From positions 31,491 through 95,490 of IMG/VR virus record IMGVR_UViG_3300045118_000377: 64,000 nucleotides of DNA; one strand, given 5' to 3'. The position numbers and the translations under genes are program-made. Shown here piece after piece: positions 1,898 to 42,114 of the stretch; the stretch's first letter is position 1; each line of letters opens with the position of its first letter. The notes below the pieces were generated by a model, which did not search any database, had not been told where the DNA came from, and saw nothing but the letters and a program-made list of their open reading frames with translations. The DNA comes from a virus.

Positions 1898-2229
1898 CCG
1901 GACAACTTCCCAAGATCACCATCGCACCGATGTTTGATCTGTGGTCGATCATCCACTTCGGATTCTGGGCGTTCATCTCCAGCTCCGTGGGCGCAACGTG
2001 GGAGCCGCCGCTCTGGGTGCATCTGCTCTACACGCTCATCGGCAGCTACGTGTGGGAGGGGATCGAATTCCCTCTTCAGCGGAAGTACCCAGCGCGGTGG
2101 AGCTACCGGCTGGAGAGCTGGCAGAACAGCTTCATCGGCGATCCGATCTCCAACCTGCTCGGTGCCGCTTTCGGCTGGTTCGTGGTGGCGTACTACAGAG
2201 AGCACTACTGGATCTGGAGGAAGCGGTGA
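1894..2229 (+). CDS. Small integral membrane protein, DUF2585-like
   Basis: Hydrophobic helices with DLWSIIH...WEGIE...ESWQNSFIGD motifs; GTGA coupling at both ends. Confidence 0.55.
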   Translation: MTGQLPKITIAPMFDLWSIIHFGFWAFISSSVGATWEPPLWVHLLYTLIGSYVWEGIEFPLQRKYPARWSYRLESWQNSFIGDPISNLLGAAFGWFVVAYYREHYWIWRKR

Positions 2230-2876
2230 GCCGTGACCCAAAGGCGACTCATTGTACGGATCCTCTGGGAGTGCCCGTGGTGCGGGAAGATCTGGACAAA
2301 GAGGCCGTTACCCCGGTCGAAGTGCCCATGCTGTCGTGCAACTGTGGAGGAAAGGGGCTGGGTATCACGATCGGATTCTCTACCACCAACAAGCTCATCT
2401 CGAGAATCATCCGGTGGATCACCAGAGGGAAGGTGAGTCACTCCTGGGTCGCCTACGACGACTTCACGCTTGGCTTGCGCATGGTCTTGCAGGCCGAGGC
2501 CTGGGGCTTCGAAGTACGGCCGTGGGCGAGGTGGTGCAGAGAGAACATCTGGGTGGCGGAGTTCCGTTTGATCAACGGGGCTCAGCACTCAGCGCTCCGC
2601 AAGAGAGCGAGGGAGATCGGGGAGAAGTACGACTACAAGTCGGCCATCGTGGCGGGGGTAATCTCCTGGTTCCGCAGGTGGGTGAGGGCGAAGTTCAGCT
2701 TCCGCTCGCACAGAACTCCTGGGAAACTGATGTGCAGTGAAGCAGTGGTGAGGTTCTTGAAGGACGCCGGGTGTCAAGCTGTGAGAAACTTGGACGAGGA
2801 GCTGACGTCTCCCGCGGAACTCTACGACATCGTTCGGTGCTCCACGGAATTCACTGCGGTGAAACGTGAGAGGTGA
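2226..2876 (+). CDS. Permuted papain-like NlpC/P60 (YiiX/YebB-type) amidase or acyl hydrolase
   Basis: His precedes Cys: ISRIIRWIT-GKVSHS ... GEKYDY ... LMCSEAV. Start reassigned to GTG2226, overlapping the upstream TGA. Confidence 0.75.
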   Translation: MSRDPKATHCTDPLGVPVVREDLDKEAVTPVEVPMLSCNCGGKGLGITIGFSTTNKLISRIIRWITRGKVSHSWVAYDDFTLGLRMVLQAEAWGFEVRPWARWCRENIWVAEFRLINGAQHSALRKRAREIGEKYDYKSAIVAGVISWFRRWVRAKFSFRSHRTPGKLMCSEAVVRFLKDAGCQAVRNLDEELTSPAELYDIVRCSTEFTAVKRER

Positions 2877-4736: not shown

Positions 4737-5687
4737 GTGGCCACCATCAAGATCAAGATCTACGTCTCCGAGCTGGCCAACGTCATGACGTTGTACGACA
4801 AGATCTCCGTGCAACGATCGACGACCGCTCCTCCGTCCACTACCGAGGACGACCTCACAGCCAACTCATCGGCACCAGCGACTCTCGTCGGCTCGCTCGA
4901 GGGACCGTACCTCCTCAACGGCAAGACCCTGACGTTCAAGGTCAACGGCACGCAGGTCTCCGTGACCTTCACGTACGCCGACCCGGTCGCGATCACCCAG
5001 GTCGTGGATGCCGTGAACGCGGCGCTCGCGGCCGCGGGCCTGGGTGCGACAGCCGATGCCTACGGCGGCAAGCTGCGGATCAGGACCACTTCCAACGGCA
5101 CGCAGTTCACGTTGGAGATCATTAGCGGTTCTGCTGTCACGGTTCTGGGGTTCACTGCCGGGCAGAAGGCGCACGGCCTCGCCGCTCACATCACGCTGGT
5201 CGTTGGCACGACCCAGTATGAGTTCGACGACGGCAGCGGGCTGGCCTCCTACTACTACCGATCTCGCTTCTTCAACACCGCCAATGGTACCTACAGCGCG
5301 TGGAGCGACTGGATCCAGGGAACGACTGGAGCCGCCATCCCGTCGGCCGATCTCATCATCGGAAAGGTCAAGCTGGCCGATCTGGATGGGAAGGCACTTC
5401 CGAACCGTGTGATCACCATCGGCAACGCCATGGAGCCCAGCAAGGCGGATGGGTACGGGATCTTCGGGGCGGCGATCACGCTGGAGACTGACGGCACGGG
5501 GCAGGCTGAGACAACGCTTGTGAAGGGATCGCTGGTGGATGTAATCTTCAATGGTACTTCCATCGTCCGGCGAATCCGGGTGCCGTCATCGGGGACTGAG
5601 TTCGACCTCCTGGACGACTCGCTGGTAGTGGGAGACGAGTTCGAAATCCAGGTGCCGGACATCCCCTATGCCCCTCGGAGATCGTAA
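4737..5687 (+). CDS. Virion structural protein with a flagellin-IN/FliD-like module
   Basis: GGAGGAG RBS; carries the LNGKTLTFKVNG...VVDAVNAAL...KLRIRT...VLGF module shared with baseplate proteins. Confidence 0.6.
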   Translation: MATIKIKIYVSELANVMTLYDKISVQRSTTAPPSTTEDDLTANSSAPATLVGSLEGPYLLNGKTLTFKVNGTQVSVTFTYADPVAITQVVDAVNAALAAAGLGATADAYGGKLRIRTTSNGTQFTLEIISGSAVTVLGFTAGQKAHGLAAHITLVVGTTQYEFDDGSGLASYYYRSRFFNTANGTYSAWSDWIQGTTGAAIPSADLIIGKVKLADLDGKALPNRVITIGNAMEPSKADGYGIFGAAITLETDGTGQAETTLVKGSLVDVIFNGTSIVRRIRVPSSGTEFDLLDDSLVVGDEFEIQVPDIPYAPRRS

Positions 5688-8319
5688 GACAGGGCGGTTG
5701 CTTCCAGCCAAGGGCGAATTCGCTCCAGGCATTCCGAAATCAAGAACGATCAGACCTCTGCCGCCGGTGCCGCGCGGCCAGCCCCAGCAGTGGGAGCTCG
5801 CCACTCAGCTCCACCACGCAGAGAAGGCCGGTCCGCACACCGACCTCCGCCTGGTAGATCCCGAAGGCCACGCCCACAGCTGGGTGCTGCCCGACACCGG
5901 CCTCCCAAAACCGGGTGAAAAATTCTACCTCCCGCAGGTCGAGACCCACACGCGGGAGTACGCCGCGCGCAAGGGCGAGTTCGAGCTGCCGGCTGGCTAT
6001 GGCAAAGGGACCGTGACCGGCTCGGGCCTGCGCCCGGTAGACGTCCATTACAGTGAGCCTGGAAAGCTCCGTTTCAGCCTGTTGGAAGGCAAAAACCCTC
6101 AAGATTACATACTGGTACGGTCACCCAAGGGGTGGGTTATCCACAACTTTTCACCGACAGCGGAAGCGGGTGTGCGTGGATCGAAGGGTTTCGCCATCCC
6201 GCAGGCGAAGCCAGCGTACAAGGAAAAGCCAACAACTTCGGTGGAGTTCGACGACCCGAGGGTGATCCATCAGGCCAAGATCGACGGCGCGCACGTGACC
6301 GTCCACATCCCGAACAAGGACAGCCAGGTCCGGGTGTTCTCCTACCGCCCGACCGAGGCTGGGACCGGGGTCATCGAGCATACCCACAAGTTGCCCTCGT
6401 ACCACACGCTGCGTGCCCCTGGGAGCCTCGCTGGCACCGTTCTCCGCGGTGAGGCATGGGCGGCAGGCCCGGACGGCAAGGCGCTGCCAGCGGAGCGTAT
6501 AGGCGGCCTCCTGAACGCGGGCGTGGCCCGTTCCAGAGAGCTCCAGCAGGAGCATGGCCCCCTACGCCTGTCGGTCTTTGACGTGGTGCGGCACAAGGGC
6601 AAGCTCATGGAGAACGCCCCCTACGCCGAGAAGCTCGAGGTGCTCCGGCAGGTGGCGAAGGAGATGCCCCAGCTCGAGCTCCCGCCCACGGCCGAGACGC
6701 CGGAGGAGAAGCTCAAGCTCTTCACTCGCATCCAGGAAGGGAAGGAGCCGGTCACCCGAGAGGGGATCGTGGCCTGGCATCTGGACCGGCCACTGCCAAC
6801 CAAGATCAAGTTCCGACCTGATGTTGATGCCGAGGTCGTGGGAGTGTTTCCAGGTAAGGGGAAGCACGAAGGACGAGCCGGTGGGCTGGTGGTGAAGCTG
6901 CCGGGGTCCGAGGCTACCACGAGAGTTGGAACTGGCTTCTCCGATCAGATGCGCAAGGAGCTGTGGGAGAGACAGCACGAGATCGTGGGGCGCGTGGCGC
7001 GTGTGGCGACTCAGCAGGTGTTCCCGAGCGGCAAGATGCGGGCACCGGCGTTCAAGGACTTCCACACGGAGAAGGGCAAGATCGCTTCGGGCAGGCACAG
7101 AGTCGAACATCTCACTACGGATGAAGAGAAGCTGGAAGCTGCTAAGTTGCAAGAAGGGATCGGTTTCGGACTTGGCCCGATCAAGCCATTGCATCCCAAG
7201 TGGGAGTATTACGGCATTCGTAGTGACGACAACAAGCTGGTTGCTGTGAGCCGAGTCAACAAAGAGCCGTTGAAGGAGTGGGAAGGTTCAAAGGACTACG
7301 AGCAGATCGCTCGGCACAGGCCGGATGTATCTATCTCGGCCACTACCGTCCACCCGGAACATCGCAGGAAGGGCATGGCAAAAGCTCTCCGAGCTCACGT
7401 CCAGGATCGATACAACACGATCATATCTGGTACCGGGGCAGAGTCAGACCTACCAGCTATGTCTAGGATCTTGGAGCAACAGGGGTTCGAGCCTATTTGG
7501 CACCGTGGGGCGAACACGCAGTACGTGTGGAAGAAGCAGGCAATGCTCGAGGCCCTAAAGGATGAACTGAACAAGGTCGCGGCTCCTGATATCAGCCCCG
7601 CGCAAGAAGTGGTTCCAGACCCTGCTCAAGATCGCCCATCGCTTGTTGGCGGCATCGCTGCGACTGGCGGCGGCACGTTGCTGGCGGCCGATATGAGAAA
7701 GCGGTTGCTTGGCGAGAAAGTAATCTACCACGGCACACATTCGGATGAAGCCGCAAAAGGGATCATGGAGCATGGGCTCCAACCTTCGTACGGTGGCACG
7801 GGGGCAGCGAAGCTGACGCCAAACTATGTAGCGCGTAGCAAAGGAAAGGTGCACGTCACGGGCGTTAAGCCTGTTGCGATGATGTTCCGATCGTTCGACC
7901 CAGAGACCTATCGTCGTGAGGGTTACGATATCGGACACCTCGTGCGCGGGAACTTGCCTGGGGCACCAGGCACGGTGGTCAAAGCGCGCATCCCGATGTC
8001 CCTTTGGGACAAGTTAGAGATCGATCCAGACATGCTGGGACATACCCCGCAGAACGAACTTCAAGAGGCCATGATCAAGGAGATCGGAGCTCGTGGGGCG
8101 CACCCCATCGAGTCGAAGTACATCAGTGGGGGCCGTGGCAGTATCAGTCGAATCCCCGAAAAGATCGTGGAACTCGGGAGGGAGTTGCCTGGCTATGTCA
8201 AGAGACACCCTCTGCGTTTCGGGGTTGGAGCGCTTGGAACAGCCGGGGGTCTCTATCTTGCCGGCAGGGGAATAGGATCTCTGCGTAGAAGATTCTCCAC
8301 GCCTACTGAGGAAGGATAG
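5668..8319 (+). CDS. Polyvalent protein: LigD-type 3'-phosphoesterase + ATP-dependent DNA ligase + GNAT acetyltransferase + ADP-ribosyltransferase-like domain
   Basis: PE motifs HHAEKAGPHTDLRL / HSWVLP / ETHTREY / GYGKGTV. Ligase KIDG, LRGE, VFDV, EGIV, KIK and OB-fold VGTGFSD...RAP. GNAT motif A VHPEHRRKGMAKAL. ART-like IYHGT...IMEHGLQP. Gly-rich hydrophobic segments. Confidence 0.8.
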   Translation: MPLGDRKTGRLLPAKGEFAPGIPKSRTIRPLPPVPRGQPQQWELATQLHHAEKAGPHTDLRLVDPEGHAHSWVLPDTGLPKPGEKFYLPQVETHTREYAARKGEFELPAGYGKGTVTGSGLRPVDVHYSEPGKLRFSLLEGKNPQDYILVRSPKGWVIHNFSPTAEAGVRGSKGFAIPQAKPAYKEKPTTSVEFDDPRVIHQAKIDGAHVTVHIPNKDSQVRVFSYRPTEAGTGVIEHTHKLPSYHTLRAPGSLAGTVLRGEAWAAGPDGKALPAERIGGLLNAGVARSRELQQEHGPLRLSVFDVVRHKGKLMENAPYAEKLEVLRQVAKEMPQLELPPTAETPEEKLKLFTRIQEGKEPVTREGIVAWHLDRPLPTKIKFRPDVDAEVVGVFPGKGKHEGRAGGLVVKLPGSEATTRVGTGFSDQMRKELWERQHEIVGRVARVATQQVFPSGKMRAPAFKDFHTEKGKIASGRHRVEHLTTDEEKLEAAKLQEGIGFGLGPIKPLHPKWEYYGIRSDDNKLVAVSRVNKEPLKEWEGSKDYEQIARHRPDVSISATTVHPEHRRKGMAKALRAHVQDRYNTIISGTGAESDLPAMSRILEQQGFEPIWHRGANTQYVWKKQAMLEALKDELNKVAAPDISPAQEVVPDPAQDRPSLVGGIAATGGGTLLAADMRKRLLGEKVIYHGTHSDEAAKGIMEHGLQPSYGGTGAAKLTPNYVARSKGKVHVTGVKPVAMMFRSFDPETYRREGYDIGHLVRGNLPGAPGTVVKARIPMSLWDKLEIDPDMLGHTPQNELQEAMIKEIGARGAHPIESKYISGGRGSISRIPEKIVELGRELPGYVKRHPLRFGVGALGTAGGLYLAGRGIGSLRRRFSTPTEEG

Positions 8320-30050: not shown

Positions 30051-33000
30051 TGGCGATCTACTCCTTCGTAACCACGCTCGTCACTCCGGTCAGCGATGAA
30101 TTCGACTGCATGGACTTCAACCCGGGGTCCATCAGCCAGATCTTGTTGTTCTCCGAAGCCGAGATCAGCCGTGGGACGCCTTGGATCACGATCGACAGCG
30201 GAGAGCTGGCCATCCTGAGTGATGACGGCATCGCCAGCATCTTTCGGTACGAACTACCCATCGGACAGCAGTTCACGTTCGAGTTCCAGTTCCGGCCGGT
30301 CGCGCTTCCTACGAACCTGGACGCGCTGGACAAGAGCAGGTTCTTCGTCGCGGCGTTCGACAACCAGGACAACGCCGGAGGTCTCCTGATCTCCCAGAGC
30401 GGCCTGGCCATCGTCTCCCAGTTCGGCAACGCCGTGATGCCGATCGCCGGCAGTCAGCACATCATCGAGGAGGGGACCAGCCCCTACACCGTCCGGATGG
30501 TGGTCGACGGCGTGACCAACATCATGGATCTCTACATCACGAAGACCTCGGAGCTGACCACCCTCGGGCACCAGCTGCGGTACACGAGCGCCGCGCCAGT
30601 GAGCCCGAGCTCGGTCATCAGCTCCGTGCGCATAGAGATCGTGGGCCAGGGAGCCCACCCGGTGCATGGGCACTTCCGCTCGCTTCGGTGTGCCTGCAAT
30701 GCTCTGCGCATCCCAAACCGTCGACCGATCGCTGATACCGGCCGTGACCAGACGGCTGTGATGGGGTCCGTCATCCGCCTGGACGGGACCGAGAGCTACG
30801 ATCCCGAAGGCTCGCAGCTGACCTACAAGTGGTCACTGATCGGCACGCCCGATCAATCGGACTACGTGCAGAGGGACTCTGGCGGCTTCACGACGGACGA
30901 TGGGGACACCGATGGGTTCACCGACGTTTTCCAGCAGGCCGGAGATCCGTGGAGCGCCGCGAACTCCCCAAGCCTTCAGCCGGGAGACGTCCTGATCGTT
31001 GATGACACCCAGTACGTGGTGTCGTCCTACGGGTGGGCGTACAACACCAGCACCAGCAAATGGGATCGAAGCGTCGGGTTCGACCCCAGTCGGTTGGTGG
31101 TCACGACCGAGACCATTCCCGATGACCTGGTTGCTGTCAGCTGGTCGCTGTTCTTCCAGAGCACGTTCTTCGACAACCGCACGCTCCCACAGCCGGCGTT
31201 CGTACCGGACGTCCATGGGCTCTACACCCTGCAGTTGGTGGTGAACGACGGGTCGTTGGACAGCCTACCGGCCGAGGGCCTGGTGAACATCACCGACAGC
31301 AACGTCCCGTTCGGGGTCGTGCCGGACGTGAACTTCATCTGGGACTACCTCTCTGACGCCTGGAACCTGTACGACGATCGAGACCCAGTCACTGTCATGT
31401 GGTCGGGTTTTGCTCAGGCCGCGGCGAACTTGCTACTGACGGCCTGGCAGCACGACTACGGCAAGAGCCTGGTGGATGTCCAACGCACGTTCCAGCGCCG
31501 CTGGTTGAACTACAGCTTCTTGCTCGATGAGCCGCCGACAGAGCGCGCCGACGTCAAGCTCCACATCCTCCGAGGAGTAATCTCGTCCAAAGTAGAGGAC
31601 TCGATCACGTTCACCAGTCCCGTCTACCTCAAGATCTCAAGAAACGGCGGAGACCTGGTGCGTGTCGATCTCACGGGCACGATGACGAAGGAAGAGATCG
31701 TGGACGCCATCAACGTGGCGTTCGGCGATCAGGCGGTTGAGAACCCCATCGCGTCGCTGGCCCATAACGTCGATGGCATCCTCTATGGTGGGCCCTACGG
31801 TGCCCAATACGGCATCCTCAGCTACATCGACTCCTGGTGGCTGGTGCTGGGGAACTCTGAGCTCATCGTGGTGAGCAAGGACGGGACGGCGAACTCCTAC
31901 TTCGGTTGGGGCTCGACCTACGATACGCAGAACGAGCTCACGGGACCGAGTTGCACGACCGCGCCTCCCCGCGGATTCTCCGTGCCCGGCACCCCGGTGC
32001 TGAGCTTCATGGATGAGGGCGTGCTGCACGGGGACCTCCTGGTCCTGGGCGAGGTCGGGGAGAAGGGGACAGGCTACCAGGTCAGCAAGGCCGTTCGACA
32101 TCAGGCGCTCACCACGATCTCCGACATCAAGAACTGGACGGGGAACTGGTGGGTGCCATCGACCGTGACCTCAACGTACACGGACTTCACCAGGCAGTTG
32201 GTGGAGACCGGTGACATCGCGCGGTTCGATGTCCGTGTGCCTGGAGCCCCGGACTCGGTCGAGATCCTGTGTGAAGTCCGGGGAGTTGACGGCAAGGTGC
32301 TGGGATTCGACGCCCGCCCGTTGCTCGAGGCCACGGCCGGAAACGTAGAAGACTACGAGATCACTTTCATGGGCGTGAGGCGCGTGTCCAACATCCCGGT
32401 CGACGCGCTCGTGGTGAGGATCCCGCGACTGCAAGAGATCATTCTGGACCCGACCGTGTGGTGGGACCAGAACTCTGACTACGTGCTGGAGGTCGATGCC
32501 AACGGCGTGAACGGCATTCGGTTCAAGGACGTCTTCAGCTTCTCCTCTCCGCCGCCAGACACCGTCTGGGCGGAGGTGACGTTCCTCGACAACCGTCCCA
32601 CGATCGAGAACAACTTCGGGAAGGCGGTCAACTTCAAGGTCGAAGACCTGACCACGCGCACTGACGATCTCGACTACCTGTCTGCCGTCCGCGGGCTGTG
32701 GTATGCCTACTTCAACGGCCCGTCGCTGTGGAACGTGCGGATCGGAGTCCAGATCCTTCTCGGCCTGCCGTTCGCGGAGGTCGACGGCATCATCACCGAC
32801 ATCAACCACACCTTCAACGCCGCCCAGGCGCGGATGGTGGTTCAGGACAAGGCCGACCCCGCTGTCTACCGCACGTACTTCATCCCACGAGATGTGGTCT
32901 GGGAGGGGGACGGGGAGACCATGATCGGGACGAACCCCGACACGGGAGAGGACTACAAGGTCGGAGACACGGTCCTGCAATTCAACCCGTTGTCGAAGGG

Positions 33001-38801: not shown

Positions 38802-39274
38802 TCAAGGAAGCGACCTACCGCGCCTTCATCGACGAGCTGGAGAAGATAGCCAGCTCGATGTCGGACGAGGAGTGGGAGAAGCTTGCGCGCATCTTCGAGC
38901 GCATGGGCCTCGGCATGAAGCGCAAGGTTGTGCCGGCGCTCAAGCGCGGCTACGAGAGCGCGCAGGTCGGGGCCGGTCAGTTCATGAGCGGCCACCACGG
39001 TCACCTCTTGGGTGAGGCCGCGCAAGAAGGTCTCCAGCACGGCGGCATGTGGCACTCCATTGACCCCTCCCACGCCCTGACTGGAGGAGCCGAAGGAGCC
39101 GCAGCGATGCTGGCCCCGGCCGCGGCCGCCGCCGCCGTGAAGGGCATCAGGAAGGCCGCGCCTATCGTGAAAGAGAAGGCGACGCGAGTGGGTGGCTATC
39201 TGAGGAGTGCGTTCGGCGGCGGTGGCCCTCCCAGCGTTCCGCCCGTCTTCGCCCCGTCGTTCGTCGGACCATGA
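38783..39274 (+). CDS. KxA-tagged small Gly/Ala-rich protein
   Basis: GTG38783 after GAGG; begins IKEATYRAFIDELEKIAS; has an Ala/Gly hydrophobic stretch. Confidence 0.6.
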   Translation: MDRSVLIKEATYRAFIDELEKIASSMSDEEWEKLARIFERMGLGMKRKVVPALKRGYESAQVGAGQFMSGHHGHLLGEAAQEGLQHGGMWHSIDPSHALTGGAEGAAAMLAPAAAAAAVKGIRKAAPIVKEKATRVGGYLRSAFGGGGPPSVPPVFAPSFVGP

Positions 39275-42114
39275 GCCGCCTGCTGCCCAAGATCGCCCAG
39301 GAGCACAAGCTCCAGGGGCACACCGAGGTCCAGGGCATACCCATAGCGATCGAGAACCGCAAGGGATCTGTCCGTGAGGGGACGACTGAGGACGGTCATC
39401 ACTGGCGCACGAAGATGAAGTTCCCCTACGGCTACATCGAGGGGACCAAGGGCGCAGACGACGAGCCAGTGGACGCCTATGTCGGGCCGGACAAGGACGC
39501 GCCCTACGCCTACGTCGTCCACCAGCACAAGCCGGATGGGACGGGCTTCGATGAAGACAAGGTCATGCTCGGGTTCGACAGCAAGGAGGACGCGCGCAAG
39601 GCCTACCTCGAGCACTACGACTCCGACAAGTTCCTCGGCCCCATCTCCCAGGTCACGATGGAGCGTCTGCAGGAACTTGTGGACAGCGGCAAGAAGCTGG
39701 AGAAGATCAGCCATCCGCATGTCCGCATGGAGAAGCCCGGAAGGTGCGGGGCGGCCGCGTTGAGGATCGCTCTTCGCGTTCACGGCATGGACATGCCGGA
39801 GGGCACGGCCGCGAAGTTGGTGAACACTGACAAGGAGGGGGCTGACCCGGAGTCTCTGGCCTCGGTCGCTGAAGCTGCTGGTCTGGATGCTGAGATCGTG
39901 GACGGCATGAAGTTCCACGAGCTCGCATGGCACACCGCAAAGGGCAGGCCGGTGGTCGTGGCATTCCAAGCGTGGCGCGGGGACACCAAGCGCCCAGCGT
40001 GGGAGGACAACTGGGACGACGGTCACTACGCCGTAGTGCTGGGCGTGGAGAACGACAAGGTTCGGATCAGTGACAGCTCGGATAGCGACAACAGCTACCT
40101 GCTAGATCGCGCGGAATTCGAGCGCCGATGGCATGACGTGGACAAGGACGGCACAGTCCGAGATCATCTTGGGATCGTGATCTCTCCGAAAATGGAGAAG
40201 CGTGCCTACAACAGGGGCGTGCATTTTCATCTGATGAACAAGACCATCCAGAAGGCGTTTGGGGACGACCTGACTCCAGAGGCCAGGCGTGTGATGTTGG
40301 ATCAGGCTCGAGAGTCAGATGTAGGGCTTCGACACCCGTGGAATCCATGGAATGCGATCCAGCACGCATTCCCCACGCTCTCGAAAGAGGAGCTTCGAGA
40401 AGAGACGCAGGGCAAGCACGAAGAGGCGATCGGATCTCTTGCCAGGGCAATCGGGGACAGGCATCTCTCCGACGTCCGCAGGTCTGTCATGGCCACGGGC
40501 GCACTGAAGGACCTGGCCCAGGCACAGCATGCCCGTATCGATGTCCACTCTCACCACGACAAGCCGCTGGAGATCGCCGAAGCCAAGGGCGGCCCAGAGC
40601 GTGTGCAGGAGTTCGTCAAGCTGCGCAGTGCGCTCCGCGATCGGCTAGGTCCGTACGGTGGGTTCGTGTCCTCTGGTATCGAGCATCTCAGATCTGGGTT
40701 CGATCTGAGGCTGAAGATGCCGGTCCTGCGCAGCGAGCTCGACAAGTTCAATCCAGAGAAGTGGGAATCGGACAAGAGCACGTTGCGCACAGCCGATGAG
40801 TACGGGCGGGAGATCAAGCACGATCTTCTGAGAACGCTGAAGTCCGAACACGACCTGAAGCCGCGCGAGGCAAAGAACGCGGTCCACGAGTTCCTGCGGT
40901 CGTTCTCGCCCGGGGTCGTTGACGAGGCTGCTGCTGAGGTGAAGGACACCGCCAAGTTCCTGGCGAGCACTGCCGGCAGGTTGTGGCGCGGTGGTGAGAA
41001 GACGTCAGCCGTCGAGCCGAAAGGGATCAAGTTCCTCTACATGGATACAGGCGGTGGCCATCGCGCACAGGCGCAGGCAATGGTGGAGGCCGCACAACAG
41101 CGTGGTATTCCGGCCGAGGCCATCCATTGGGGAGAGTTCGCGAAAGGCACGTCGCTCAAGAGCTACGAGAAGGCGTACACGGACTACCTTCAGGACAAGA
41201 AGGGCCTGCCTGCGTTAGGGTTGGCGCACATCAGGTTCCACATGATGGGGACCGACAAGGAGAAGCTTCGCAACTGGGTCGACCAGAACAGAGACCAGGC
41301 GATCGTCGTGACTCACGAGCATCTTCAACGTCACTTCAAGGGCATCGAGCATCCAGTTCATGTCCTGCACTCAGATCCCGTGAAGTGGCCAATGGCTTCC
41401 AAGGTGGACAAGCCTGATCGTATCCACATCGGCCTCCCAGAAGTTCTGAAAGAGCTCGGTGTGAAGAACAAAGTGCCGATCAGCAACGTCCCTGTAGGAA
41501 AGGGCGTGCTCCAACCCAAGGGCAAGTCGGGCTTGATCGACCCTGAGAAGTTCAACGTCACGGTGAGTGGTGGCGGTCTTGGCGCTGAGGTCGCTCCGCT
41601 CACAAAGCAGGTGTTGAAGTCAGATCTGCCGGAAGACGCAGTTGTTCATGCAGTTGCCGGCAAGAACAAGGGCGCGTTGAAGGAGCTACGAAGCATCGCC
41701 AAGAAGGATCCTCGTCTTCAGGTCCATGGCTTTGCACCGTTGCCTACGATGATGCGGGAGGCAGATCTGAACGTCGTTCGTACGCACGGCACGACCTTCG
41801 CGGAGACCGTGGCGTCGGGCAAGCCCGCGGTCTACTACGGGCCGAAAGCGCCGCTGGTGGGCAAACTGCATCCGGTCACCGATTTCCAGGCAGATCTGAC
41901 AAGAAGAACTGCGTTGTATGCGGGAGAACAGGTGGGGCATCCTGTTGCTATCGGTCTGGAGAACGTACCCGATGCCGTGGAAGAGGCGGTAGAGAACGCT
42001 CCGAAGTTCAGGCGACTGGCTGTCGAGGCCAAGAAACAGATGGGTAACCCCGCGGACCAGGCTGTGAAGCAGATCATGAAGCCACGTAGGGGATACCTGC
42101 GCCCGAAGGAGTAG
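39271..42114 (+). CDS. Polyvalent protein: inorganic-pyrophosphatase-like + C39 peptidase + Zn phospholipase C/P1-like + MGDG-synthase/UgtP-like glycosyltransferase
   Basis: InPase IENRKGS..YGYI.GT.GADDEPVD..DEDKVMLGF. C39 CGAAAL...GHYAVV...ISDS. PLC/P1-like YNRGVH...QHARIDVHSH. GT-B TGGGHRAQA...VTH...GGGLG...AGKN...VHGF...MREADL...GTTFAE...GKP. Confidence 0.75.
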   Translation: MSRLLPKIAQEHKLQGHTEVQGIPIAIENRKGSVREGTTEDGHHWRTKMKFPYGYIEGTKGADDEPVDAYVGPDKDAPYAYVVHQHKPDGTGFDEDKVMLGFDSKEDARKAYLEHYDSDKFLGPISQVTMERLQELVDSGKKLEKISHPHVRMEKPGRCGAAALRIALRVHGMDMPEGTAAKLVNTDKEGADPESLASVAEAAGLDAEIVDGMKFHELAWHTAKGRPVVVAFQAWRGDTKRPAWEDNWDDGHYAVVLGVENDKVRISDSSDSDNSYLLDRAEFERRWHDVDKDGTVRDHLGIVISPKMEKRAYNRGVHFHLMNKTIQKAFGDDLTPEARRVMLDQARESDVGLRHPWNPWNAIQHAFPTLSKEELREETQGKHEEAIGSLARAIGDRHLSDVRRSVMATGALKDLAQAQHARIDVHSHHDKPLEIAEAKGGPERVQEFVKLRSALRDRLGPYGGFVSSGIEHLRSGFDLRLKMPVLRSELDKFNPEKWESDKSTLRTADEYGREIKHDLLRTLKSEHDLKPREAKNAVHEFLRSFSPGVVDEAAAEVKDTAKFLASTAGRLWRGGEKTSAVEPKGIKFLYMDTGGGHRAQAQAMVEAAQQRGIPAEAIHWGEFAKGTSLKSYEKAYTDYLQDKKGLPALGLAHIRFHMMGTDKEKLRNWVDQNRDQAIVVTHEHLQRHFKGIEHPVHVLHSDPVKWPMASKVDKPDRIHIGLPEVLKELGVKNKVPISNVPVGKGVLQPKGKSGLIDPEKFNVTVSGGGLGAEVAPLTKQVLKSDLPEDAVVHAVAGKNKGALKELRSIAKKDPRLQVHGFAPLPTMMREADLNVVRTHGTTFAETVASGKPAVYYGPKAPLVGKLHPVTDFQADLTRRTALYAGEQVGHPVAIGLENVPDAVEEAVENAPKFRRLAVEAKKQMGNPADQAVKQIMKPRRGYLRPKE

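Follow-up and report, generated by a model that had tools for sequence, protein, structure and literature searches.

A predicted zinc phospholipase C/P1 nuclease-like domain behind a conserved Lys-x-Ala junction in a polyvalent protein of an uncultured phage

In the superfamily that comprises zinc-dependent phospholipases C (PLC) and S1/P1 nucleases, the free N-terminus of residue 1 is itself a metal ligand (PMC5201275, PMC11705217). In S1 nuclease and SmNuc1 these mature N-termini are Trp21 and Trp27, which coordinate zinc through the main chain (PMC5201275, PMC11705217). Listeria PlcB is synthesized as a proenzyme without activity, which the protease Mpl activates; a single extra residue before W1 abolishes its activity, while W1F is tolerated (PMC10576769). 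Among phages, Iyer et al. have proposed that polyvalent proteins are processed into separate effectors by embedded metallopeptidases (PMC5512222). Here we describe P0001, a polyprotein of 947 aa encoded at 39271..42114 (+ strand, as are all features of this gene) in a 64,000-nucleotide window of an uncultured phage (IMG/VR record IMGVR_UViG_3300045118_000377, record positions 31,491 to 95,490; coordinates below are those of the window unless stated otherwise). P0001 consists of an inorganic pyrophosphatase (InPase), a C39 peptidase, a region of ~270 aa without annotation and a GT28-like glycosyltransferase (GT). No Pfam match was found over aa ~300-590 of P0001. The region concerned, aa 313-585 (40207..41025, identical with P0002), is predicted to be an all-helical Zn-PLC/P1-nuclease-like domain, as judged from its model, its structural matches and its homologues.

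The reading that we favour, with somewhat better than even confidence, is that this domain is a latent, diverged and phage-specific tri-metal member of the PLC/S1-P1 superfamily, whose Tyr1 would be freed by cleavage at a K-x-A tag that also separates the modules, and whose substrate is likely a lipid. It is built on a fold match, ligand-like residues, an invariant K-x-[A/G/S] and the portability of this tag; from these we infer cleavage and latency, as well as the protease, zinc binding and the substrate.

The model of aa 313-585, obtained with AlphaFold2 (AF2) on a 30-sequence alignment of the family (A1), is all-helical, with a predicted local distance difference test score (pLDDT) of 91.9 and a predicted template modelling score (pTM) of 0.89. 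It was aligned with VIA-align to each of 48,161 PDB representative chains. Three PLCs came first: Clostridium absonum alpha-toxin (1olp; Z 7.9, root-mean-square deviation (rmsd) 3.5, 147 residues aligned), B. cereus PLC (1ah7; Z 7.7) and Listeria PlcB (8cqm; Z 7.6). SmNuc1 (8qjl; Z 6.0) followed at rank 4, S1 nuclease (5fb9; Z 5.9) at rank 5 and the plant bifunctional nuclease AtBFN2 (3w52; Z 5.3) at rank 10. A second model, that of the relative P0022 (27% identical, its own 13-residue leader included, pLDDT 91.5), retrieved the same six chains in the same order, with Z of 9.6, 9.4, 8.6, 7.0, 6.2 and 6.0. For both models together, PLCs thus occupy ranks 1-3 (Z 7.6-9.6, rmsd 3.3-3.7, ~147-151 residues aligned) and S1/P1 nucleases ranks 4, 5 and 7 or 10 (Z 5.3-7.0). 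The core that superposes on PLCs corresponds roughly to aa 313-530 of P0001. A PLC/P1-like fold had been put forward in a preliminary description of this locus, with structure prediction set beforehand as the test, and Zn-PLCs and S1/P1 nucleases are indeed the top matches of two independent models.

Each of the six P0022 alignments has Tyr14, which directly follows K-I-A, as its first model residue, and three of these rows were computed with the low-confidence leader untrimmed. Tyr14 stands opposite chain residue 1 in the PLCs and 3w52, residue 27 in SmNuc1 and residue 21 in S1. The aromatic Tyr after K-x-A, earlier supposed to be residue 1, is therefore aligned with the mature residue 1 of PLC/P1 enzymes. 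What gives the modelled fold its weight is that one superfamily stands atop the ranks twice, that most of the domain is covered and that the register falls on residue 1.

Searching 1.84 billion representatives exhaustively with HMMER yielded 41 relatives of aa 313-585. Most of them are standalone proteins of 270-300 aa with a 12-24-aa leader; the remaining ones are fused to a LigD phosphoesterase, a DNA ligase, a GT28 domain, P-loop domains or a glycine zipper. The 35 relatives considered at the junction all come from uncultured phages. Five relatives are carried by IMG/VR phage contigs 50-188 kb in length (scan with the closer sub-alignment A2) and one by a contig of a metagenome-assembled genome (MAG). 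No relative of the PLC-like domain was found by tblastn in 50,697 GenBank phages, or in IMG/VR with the P0001 domain itself as query; Foldseek gave no match to it among the BFVD viral models, and the ESM Atlas no usable one. The only genome-collection match for the family is CALEMW010000041.1 (L008), a 71.7-kb contig of an uncultured-bacterium MAG. The GTDB phylum of this MAG also holds a genome annotated Candidatus Krumholzibacteria, which may be a weak lead to the host lineage, unless a phage contig was binned into the MAG.

Numbered from Tyr313 as residue 1, D38, H53, H108, D112, H116, R140 and H160 are invariant in A1 (30/30) and E159 is found in 29/30. Positions 1 and 6 were counted over 28 sequences: H6 is present in 28/28, and position +1 is Tyr in 25/28, with Phe, Gly and Ala once each. 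The L003 locus, where the gene call lacks the leader, reads FFDELEKIG directly followed by FDTPGH, with Phe at +1. In P0001, conservation and the alignment register designate Tyr313-x4-His318 (40207..40224) as the proposed residue 1 and first His ligand. Further proposed metal ligands are Asp350 and His365 (D38 and H53; 40318..40365) and His420-x3-Asp424-x3-His428, carried by one long helix (40528..40554). Arg452 (R140; 40624..40626) could possibly bind phosphate, and the Glu471-His472 dyad (E159-H160) is located at 40681..40686.

SmNuc1 employs nine ligands, Trp27, His32, Asp71, His88, His141, Asp145, His151, His175 and Asp179, which become W1, H6, D45, H62, H115, D119, H125, H149 and D153 when renumbered from the mature N-terminus (PMC11705217). 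Seven positions of the phage family, Y1, H6, D38, H53, H108, D112 and H116, occur in the SmNuc1 order with similar spacing, D38 and H53 being 15 residues apart as compared with D71-H88 in SmNuc1 (PMC11705217). From this conservation we infer that the phage His/Asp set may provide metal ligands. The third motif, H-x3-D-x3-H, has the same spacing in the bona fide PF00882 proteins L010 and L011. In these two, the Zn_dep_PLPC domains with H-x3-D-x3-H (LGYLSHIALDITAH) lie inside bacterial proteins of 700-1080 aa with no obvious processing site.

These positions include the two strings that had drawn attention to the locus. EKRA (aa 309-312) is directly followed by YNRGVH, with Tyr313 at 40207 and His318 five residues on, exactly as described, and QHARIDVHSH is present at aa 419-428 (40525-40554). 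The H-x3-D motif pointed out there is conserved and extends to H-x3-D-x3-H; its third residue is H428, and not H426, which is variable (G/S/A in relatives). Y-x4-H and H-x3-D are worth attention because they are conserved throughout the family, single strings of this kind being unremarkable by chance.

The E-K-R-A linker (40195..40206) is predicted to be cleaved after Ala312, on the basis of family-wide conservation of P3 and P1. In a junction set of 35 sequences (26 aligned relatives, eight fused forms and P0001), Lys occupies P3, the third residue upstream of Tyr, in 35/35, the fused forms (8/8) among them, and P1, just before Tyr, is small in 35/35 (Ala 29, Gly 4, Ser 2). This agrees with the earlier view that the K-x-A/aromatic junction is a functional boundary. 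P2 is Leu, Ile or Val in 25/35. Further upstream the consensus reads F(P9)-x-[DE]-E-[LM]-x-K-[LIV]-A, with E-K-x-A as a short form. The K-x-[A/G/S] junction is kept both behind a 12-24-aa leader and behind another domain. In the P0022 model the leader has a pLDDT of ~53 beside a domain above 90, although it is conserved, and thus it fits a recognition peptide and not a part of the fold.

The same tag is found on unrelated cargo. P0001 starts with the leader MSRLLPKIA (39271..39297), whose K-I-A end stands directly before the InPase; the InPase begins QEH after K-I-A in P0001 and after K-M-A in L003, and this K-[IM]-A/QEH junction is found again in P0004 and in the InPase-GT protein of L003. 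Two small genes adjoining the PLC-like gene of L003 start with an identical FFDELEKIG, making three adjacent tagged genes. The long form is present five times in the phage studied here, in each case on the coding strand. A 137-aa protein has it as its leader, other polyproteins contain three internal copies, and the fifth copy is located eight residues before the C-terminus of the open reading frame (ORF) upstream of the 137-aa-protein gene. A degenerate DNA pattern of the tag gave 5 forward hits in the contig, against 0 in reverse and 0 with the reversed control. Thus one short leader with a constant final motif is carried by unrelated cargo proteins, as in the T4 internal proteins with a capsid targeting sequence (CTS).

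Two tagged loci can be mentioned here. Upstream of the window, at G000:C1:25511-25640 (L002:7511-7640), an ORF ends in FLDELQKIALKAETVRGR at its stop codon, and the gene after it starts with MAIHDFELVKIAFLDELRKMAA followed by S, that is two tandem tag copies, just before a sigma-factor-like gene (L002:7986-8810). Within the window, 5668-8319 encodes an 883-aa polyprotein with a LigD phosphoesterase and an ATP-dependent DNA ligase, with the long tag LKDELNKVAA at 7555; P0041 has the same ligase architecture and ends in a PLC-like domain.

The tag also delimits modules. When P0001, P0004 and the L003 InPase-GT protein are aligned, they differ by whole modules whose edges are exactly K-x-[AS]. 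Compared with P0004 (62% identical), the C39 block of P0001 with its trailing EKRA (aa 148-312, window 39712-40206) is a clean cassette insertion. The E-K-I-S junction between InPase and C39 (aa 144-147, 39700..39711) has its counterpart in P0004, where the InPase end reads EKLTKIS and is directly followed by the Tyr of the PLC-like domain. The E-K-T-S junction between the PLC-like domain and the GT (aa 576-579, 40996..41007) is kept as EKTS in P0004. K-[ILMVRT]-[AGS], a pattern selected once the sites were known, occurs 4 times in P0001, each time at a module border. With 16 instances in P0001, bare K-x-[AGS] is uninformative, so that only junction-anchored and long forms were used.

The domain is probably latent, since its essential first residue Tyr always follows the Lys-x-Ala tag, and by analogy with PlcB it would probably be kept off until a protease cuts exactly after K-x-A. 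According to the proposed scheme, a latent precursor would be made, a four-module polyprotein here and a leader-bearing protein of 270-300 aa in relatives. A trans-acting phage protease would recognize F-x-[DE]-E-[LM]-x-K-[ILV]-A or the short E-K-x-A and cut after the small residue. Tyr313 would thereby gain a free alpha-amino group and complete the metal cluster, and cleavage by this protease would also part the InPase, C39, PLC-like and GT modules from one another. If T4 internal proteins and the head proteins of phiKZ and SPN3US are a guide, cleavage would most likely take place during head maturation, the products being packaged and ejected. Zymogen logic of this kind is not new as a principle, since it is established for Listeria PlcB (PMC10576769).

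A number of observations weigh against this reading, and they are given in the following paragraphs together with the alternatives to which they belong. The first concern the fold. Z of 7.6-9.6 can be reached by chance in helical proteins, the tool giving a warning below about 8-13, and Foldseek against the PDB placed SmNuc1 first with an E of 0.099 and a TM of ~0.24-0.25, with no match at E<=0.001. P0001 has no Pfam PLC or S1-P1_nuclease match at E<=1, and the best relative reaches 18.9 bits against the PF00882 cut-off of 26.8, below the threshold. Comparison by hhalign of A1 with A3, a 20-sequence bona fide PF00882 subfamily, gave a probability of 0.5%, and with single sequences hhalign returned nothing beyond a local match to the H-x3-D-x3-H of L010. 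A search of PDB sequences with profile A1 retrieved neither PLC nor P1, and phmmer of the PLC-like region against the same sequences gave chance matches only. The profile search also returned SMC4 (E 0.0036, over a C-terminal helical stretch), a match judged spurious. No PF00882 match was found in a six-frame search of the phage contig, nor PF02265 in 201 genomes of one phylum.

A similarity due to coincidental packing of helices, the region being a non-enzymatic structural or linker domain, could accommodate Z below 10, the Foldseek scores (E about 0.1, TM about 0.25) and the negative hhalign and profile-versus-PDB searches. It is nevertheless very improbable in our view: six members of one superfamily came at ranks 1-5 and 7 or 10 of 48,161 with two models, and seven invariant His/Asp are co-linear with a known ligand set. 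Moreover, three of the 30 relatives have co-linear, sub-threshold matches to Pfam Zn_dep_PLPC (E 0.0016 over profile positions 24-164/167, E 0.019 over 2-109, and E 0.043). As structure and ligand pattern match while sequence scores stay below threshold, we place the domain in the superfamily (the clan of PF00882 and PF02265) and not in PF00882 itself.

A second set of observations bears on the metal site and on cleavage. The canonical last H-x3-D/E pair (H175/D179 in SmNuc1) is replaced by the adjacent E159-H160 dyad. Two relatives have no aromatic residue at +1, one having Gly and the other Ala. Some bona fide PF00882 domains (L010-L013) lie inside proteins of 544-1080 aa, and therefore a free N-terminus may not be needed throughout the superfamily. 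Lastly, Pfam S78 (PF04586), S77 (PF03420), S49 (PF01343) and ClpP (PF00574) were not found in six-frame searches of five phage records, the contig being ~52% complete and the phages very divergent.

These points can be taken together in an alternative where the fold and the enzyme are the same and cleavage never occurs. K-x-A-Y would be an N-terminal capping or docking element of an internal domain whose site is two-metal or completed otherwise, and the shared tag would be a binding peptide, for instance for capsid or scaffold targeting. The PF00882 domains in large proteins without obvious processing site, the fruitless search for protease families and the relatives lacking an aromatic +1 all fit this possibility, as does the non-canonical last ligand pair, with which the metal site may differ anyway. 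We find it rather unlikely. The K-x-A tag also precedes the InPase and small cargo and therefore does not belong to this fold, the P0022 model places the leader away from the domain with low confidence, and the alignments begin exactly at the Tyr opposite Trp1. In addition, a single extra N-terminal residue kills PlcB, the nearest characterised enzyme (PMC10576769).

If the junction is cleaved, as we favour, the C39-like papain-fold cysteine peptidase of P0001 (aa 151-289, 39721..40137; Pfam PF03412 E 3.3e-11, PF13529 E 8e-06) might do it. This module appears intact and stands directly upstream of the PLC-like domain, its end being 7 residues before Tyr313, and embedded peptidases have been proposed to process polyvalent proteins by Iyer et al. 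(PMC5512222). Cleavage of EKRA in cis or in trans by this peptidase in place of a head-maturation protease, a variant nested within the cleavage reading, nonetheless strikes us as quite unlikely: the K-x-[AS]/Tyr junction exists without any C39 in P0004 and in nearly all standalone relatives, so that C39 is not the general protease. Besides, C39 peptidases are known for Gly-Gly sites and not K-x-A. The small P1 preference recalls the V/L-x-A/S sites of assemblin-type herpesvirus proteases, whose fold is common to phage prohead proteases; this is a lead only. A gene at window 1941-2876 (+), in a structural block, encodes a product whose C-terminal half matches PHROG 1128 'enoyl-CoA hydratase-like' (crotonase/ClpP fold; E 7.6e-11). 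This product had no Pfam or PDB sequence match, and as judged from its sequence it is a possible candidate for a ClpP/S49-type protease, an unverified lead.

The last question is that of the substrate. The GT28-type domain that follows the PLC-like domain (41026..42111; Pfam Glyco_tran_28_C E 0.012) matches, among PDB sequences, the UgtP-type processive diacylglycerol (DAG) glucosyltransferase 9wde (E 0.004) and plant MGD1 4wyi (E 0.052, over the GGGH motif). PLC-like genes are fused or adjacent to a GT in five lineages (P0001, P0004, P0036, L003 and L004). Since the nearest solved relatives of the GT are DAG glycosyltransferases, DAG, the PLC product, would be its acceptor, and the GT would use what the PLC releases. 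Together with the higher Z of PLCs than of nucleases and the weak Pfam matches to PLC, this fusion or adjacency makes us favour a lipid, and a phospholipid head-group phosphodiester appears the most likely substrate on the basis of the models. We hold a lipid to be about twice as likely as a nucleotide substrate.

The competing possibility is an enzyme cleaved and activated in the same way but of the S1/P1 type, a nuclease or nucleotide phosphodiesterase that would act after ejection on host RNA or ssDNA, 3'-nucleotides or cyclic-nucleotide immune signals. Here belongs a further point against our reading, namely that the domain is fused elsewhere to DNA ligase or LigD phosphoesterase, which fits a nucleic-acid role equally well. 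Thus the fusions to DNA ligase or LigD 3'-phosphoesterase (P0041, P0026) speak for a nuclease, and the invariant R140 could bind phosphate. In B. cereus PLC the spacing is W1...H14. The W/Y-x4-H spacing is that of S1/P1 enzymes (Trp27 and His32 in SmNuc1; PMC11705217), the first Foldseek match, SmNuc1, is a c-di-GMP cleaver (PMC11705217), and the domain is fused here to an InPase, a module linked by Iyer et al. to nucleotide targets (PMC5512222). On the other hand, Z is higher for PLCs with both models (7.6-9.6 vs 5.3-7.0), the weak Pfam matches are to Zn_dep_PLPC and not to S1-P1_nuclease, and fusion or adjacency to a DAG-glycosyltransferase-like GT is repeated. We therefore consider a nuclease rather unlikely; as it differs from the favoured reading only in the substrate, the two overlap and their probabilities are not to be added.

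As for its setting, P0001 corresponds to what Iyer et al. call polyvalent proteins (PMC5512222), and it is located in a late region. We class it so because of its phage-type InPase, the virion-type PHROG matches and the Baseplate_J/tail neighbours. The InPase is of the polyvalent-protein type (aa 15-136, 39313..39678; Pfam PF18823 E 1.3e-42), and in PHROG it matches virion proteins, minor head proteins and DarB-like proteins. Among the neighbours are genes for Baseplate_J and tail proteins, as in a late or structural region. P0001 thus combines several unrelated effector domains, including the PF18823 InPase, C39 and the GT, in a late region. The record amounts to 95.5 kb, with a CheckV completeness estimate of 52%; in 20 further contig ORFs scanned with PHROG and Pfam, capsid, portal and protease were not found.

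In related phages the same modules are shuffled. At L003:8861-12883 a standalone, leader-bearing PLC-like gene lies just upstream of the InPase-GT fusion, at L004:3272-6551 a GT is followed by a second PLC-like copy, and at L008:3467-6882 an InPase is flanked by two PLC-like copies.

We found no paper on a phage zinc-PLC-like virion protein in the literature. Three aspects appear to be new: a Tyr1 clade restricted to phages, whose ligand set is modified and which standard annotation misses; the embedding of this clade in leader-cargo polyproteins; and the appeal to enzyme chemistry to place the scissile bond of the shared K-x-A tag. If the favoured reading is correct, a phage-only clade missed by sequence tools is added to the tri-zinc PLC/P1 superfamily. 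It would also provide an independent, structure-based argument for the cut site of a previously unknown phage processing system: enzyme chemistry needs the bond before Tyr to be broken, and therefore K-x-A at the other module borders becomes a testable cleavage consensus. This would allow the mature products of many unannotated polyproteins of uncultured large phages to be predicted, and it points to attack or remodelling of membrane lipids as a possible virion-delivered function. One may speculate further, although we think it unlikely, that K-x-A is the address-and-cut signal of an undescribed maturation protease in phages in which leader-cargo cassettes are joined into polyproteins, and that a Tyr1 PLC and a DAG glycosyltransferase, released by cutting and delivered with the genome, turn phospholipid of the host into glycolipid as infection begins. 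If true, a group of large uncultured phages would carry in the virion a pathway of lipid remodelling that has its own zymogen lock.

In the models the phage domain has the all-helical fold of Listeria PlcB (8CQM), B. cereus PC-PLC (1AH7) and the N-domain of clostridial alpha-toxin (1OLP). PlcB, which needs an exactly placed aromatic residue 1, is kept inactive by its propeptide until Mpl acts and tolerates W1F, is the enzyme to which the phage domain can best be likened (PMC10576769). Several features differ from those of PLCs. Residue 1 is Tyr and not Trp, and the first His comes at +6 instead of about +14; H-x3-D-x3-H stands for H-x3-D-x5-H, and an E-H dyad for H-x3-E. The domain has about 60 extra C-terminal helical residues, stays below the PF00882 threshold and is phage-encoded. 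It also lacks a signal peptide, in place of which stand a hydrophilic K-x-A leader or upstream enzyme domains.

With the S1/P1 nucleases (SmNuc1 8QJL, S1 5FB9, AtBFN2 3W52) the superfamily fold is shared at Z 5.3-7.0. Both have the first His after residue 1-x4, a D...H distance of about 15-17, an H...H distance of about 53-55 and a co-linear H-x3-D (PMC11705217). The mature N-terminus of S1/P1 enzymes arises by leader removal (PMC5201275), to which the cleavage proposed here can be likened. The phage domain differs from them by the absence of disulfides and of a secretion signal, by another last ligand pair and by the lack of a PF02265 signal.

As to the tag, T4 internal proteins and Alt with their CTS, and the head proteins of phiKZ and SPN3US, likewise have a shared short leader on unrelated cargo, a fixed cleavage motif and late genes (PMC9026906, PMC10052503). 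The motif itself is distinct, K-x-A/G/S with an upstream F-x-D-E-L here as against L/I-x-E or S/A/G-x-E in T4, phiKZ and SPN3US. Unlike those of the T4 type, the phage leaders described here are reused internally as polyprotein linkers; the cargo would be packaged and ejected. Finally, the polyvalent proteins of Iyer et al. are multi-enzyme proteins with a PF18823 InPase, an embedded peptidase and a late context, like P0001 (PMC5512222). The words phospholipase and glycosyltransferase have 0 occurrences in that work (PMC5512222). Its authors credit embedded metallopeptidases with the processing, and not a shared linker motif as proposed here (PMC5512222).

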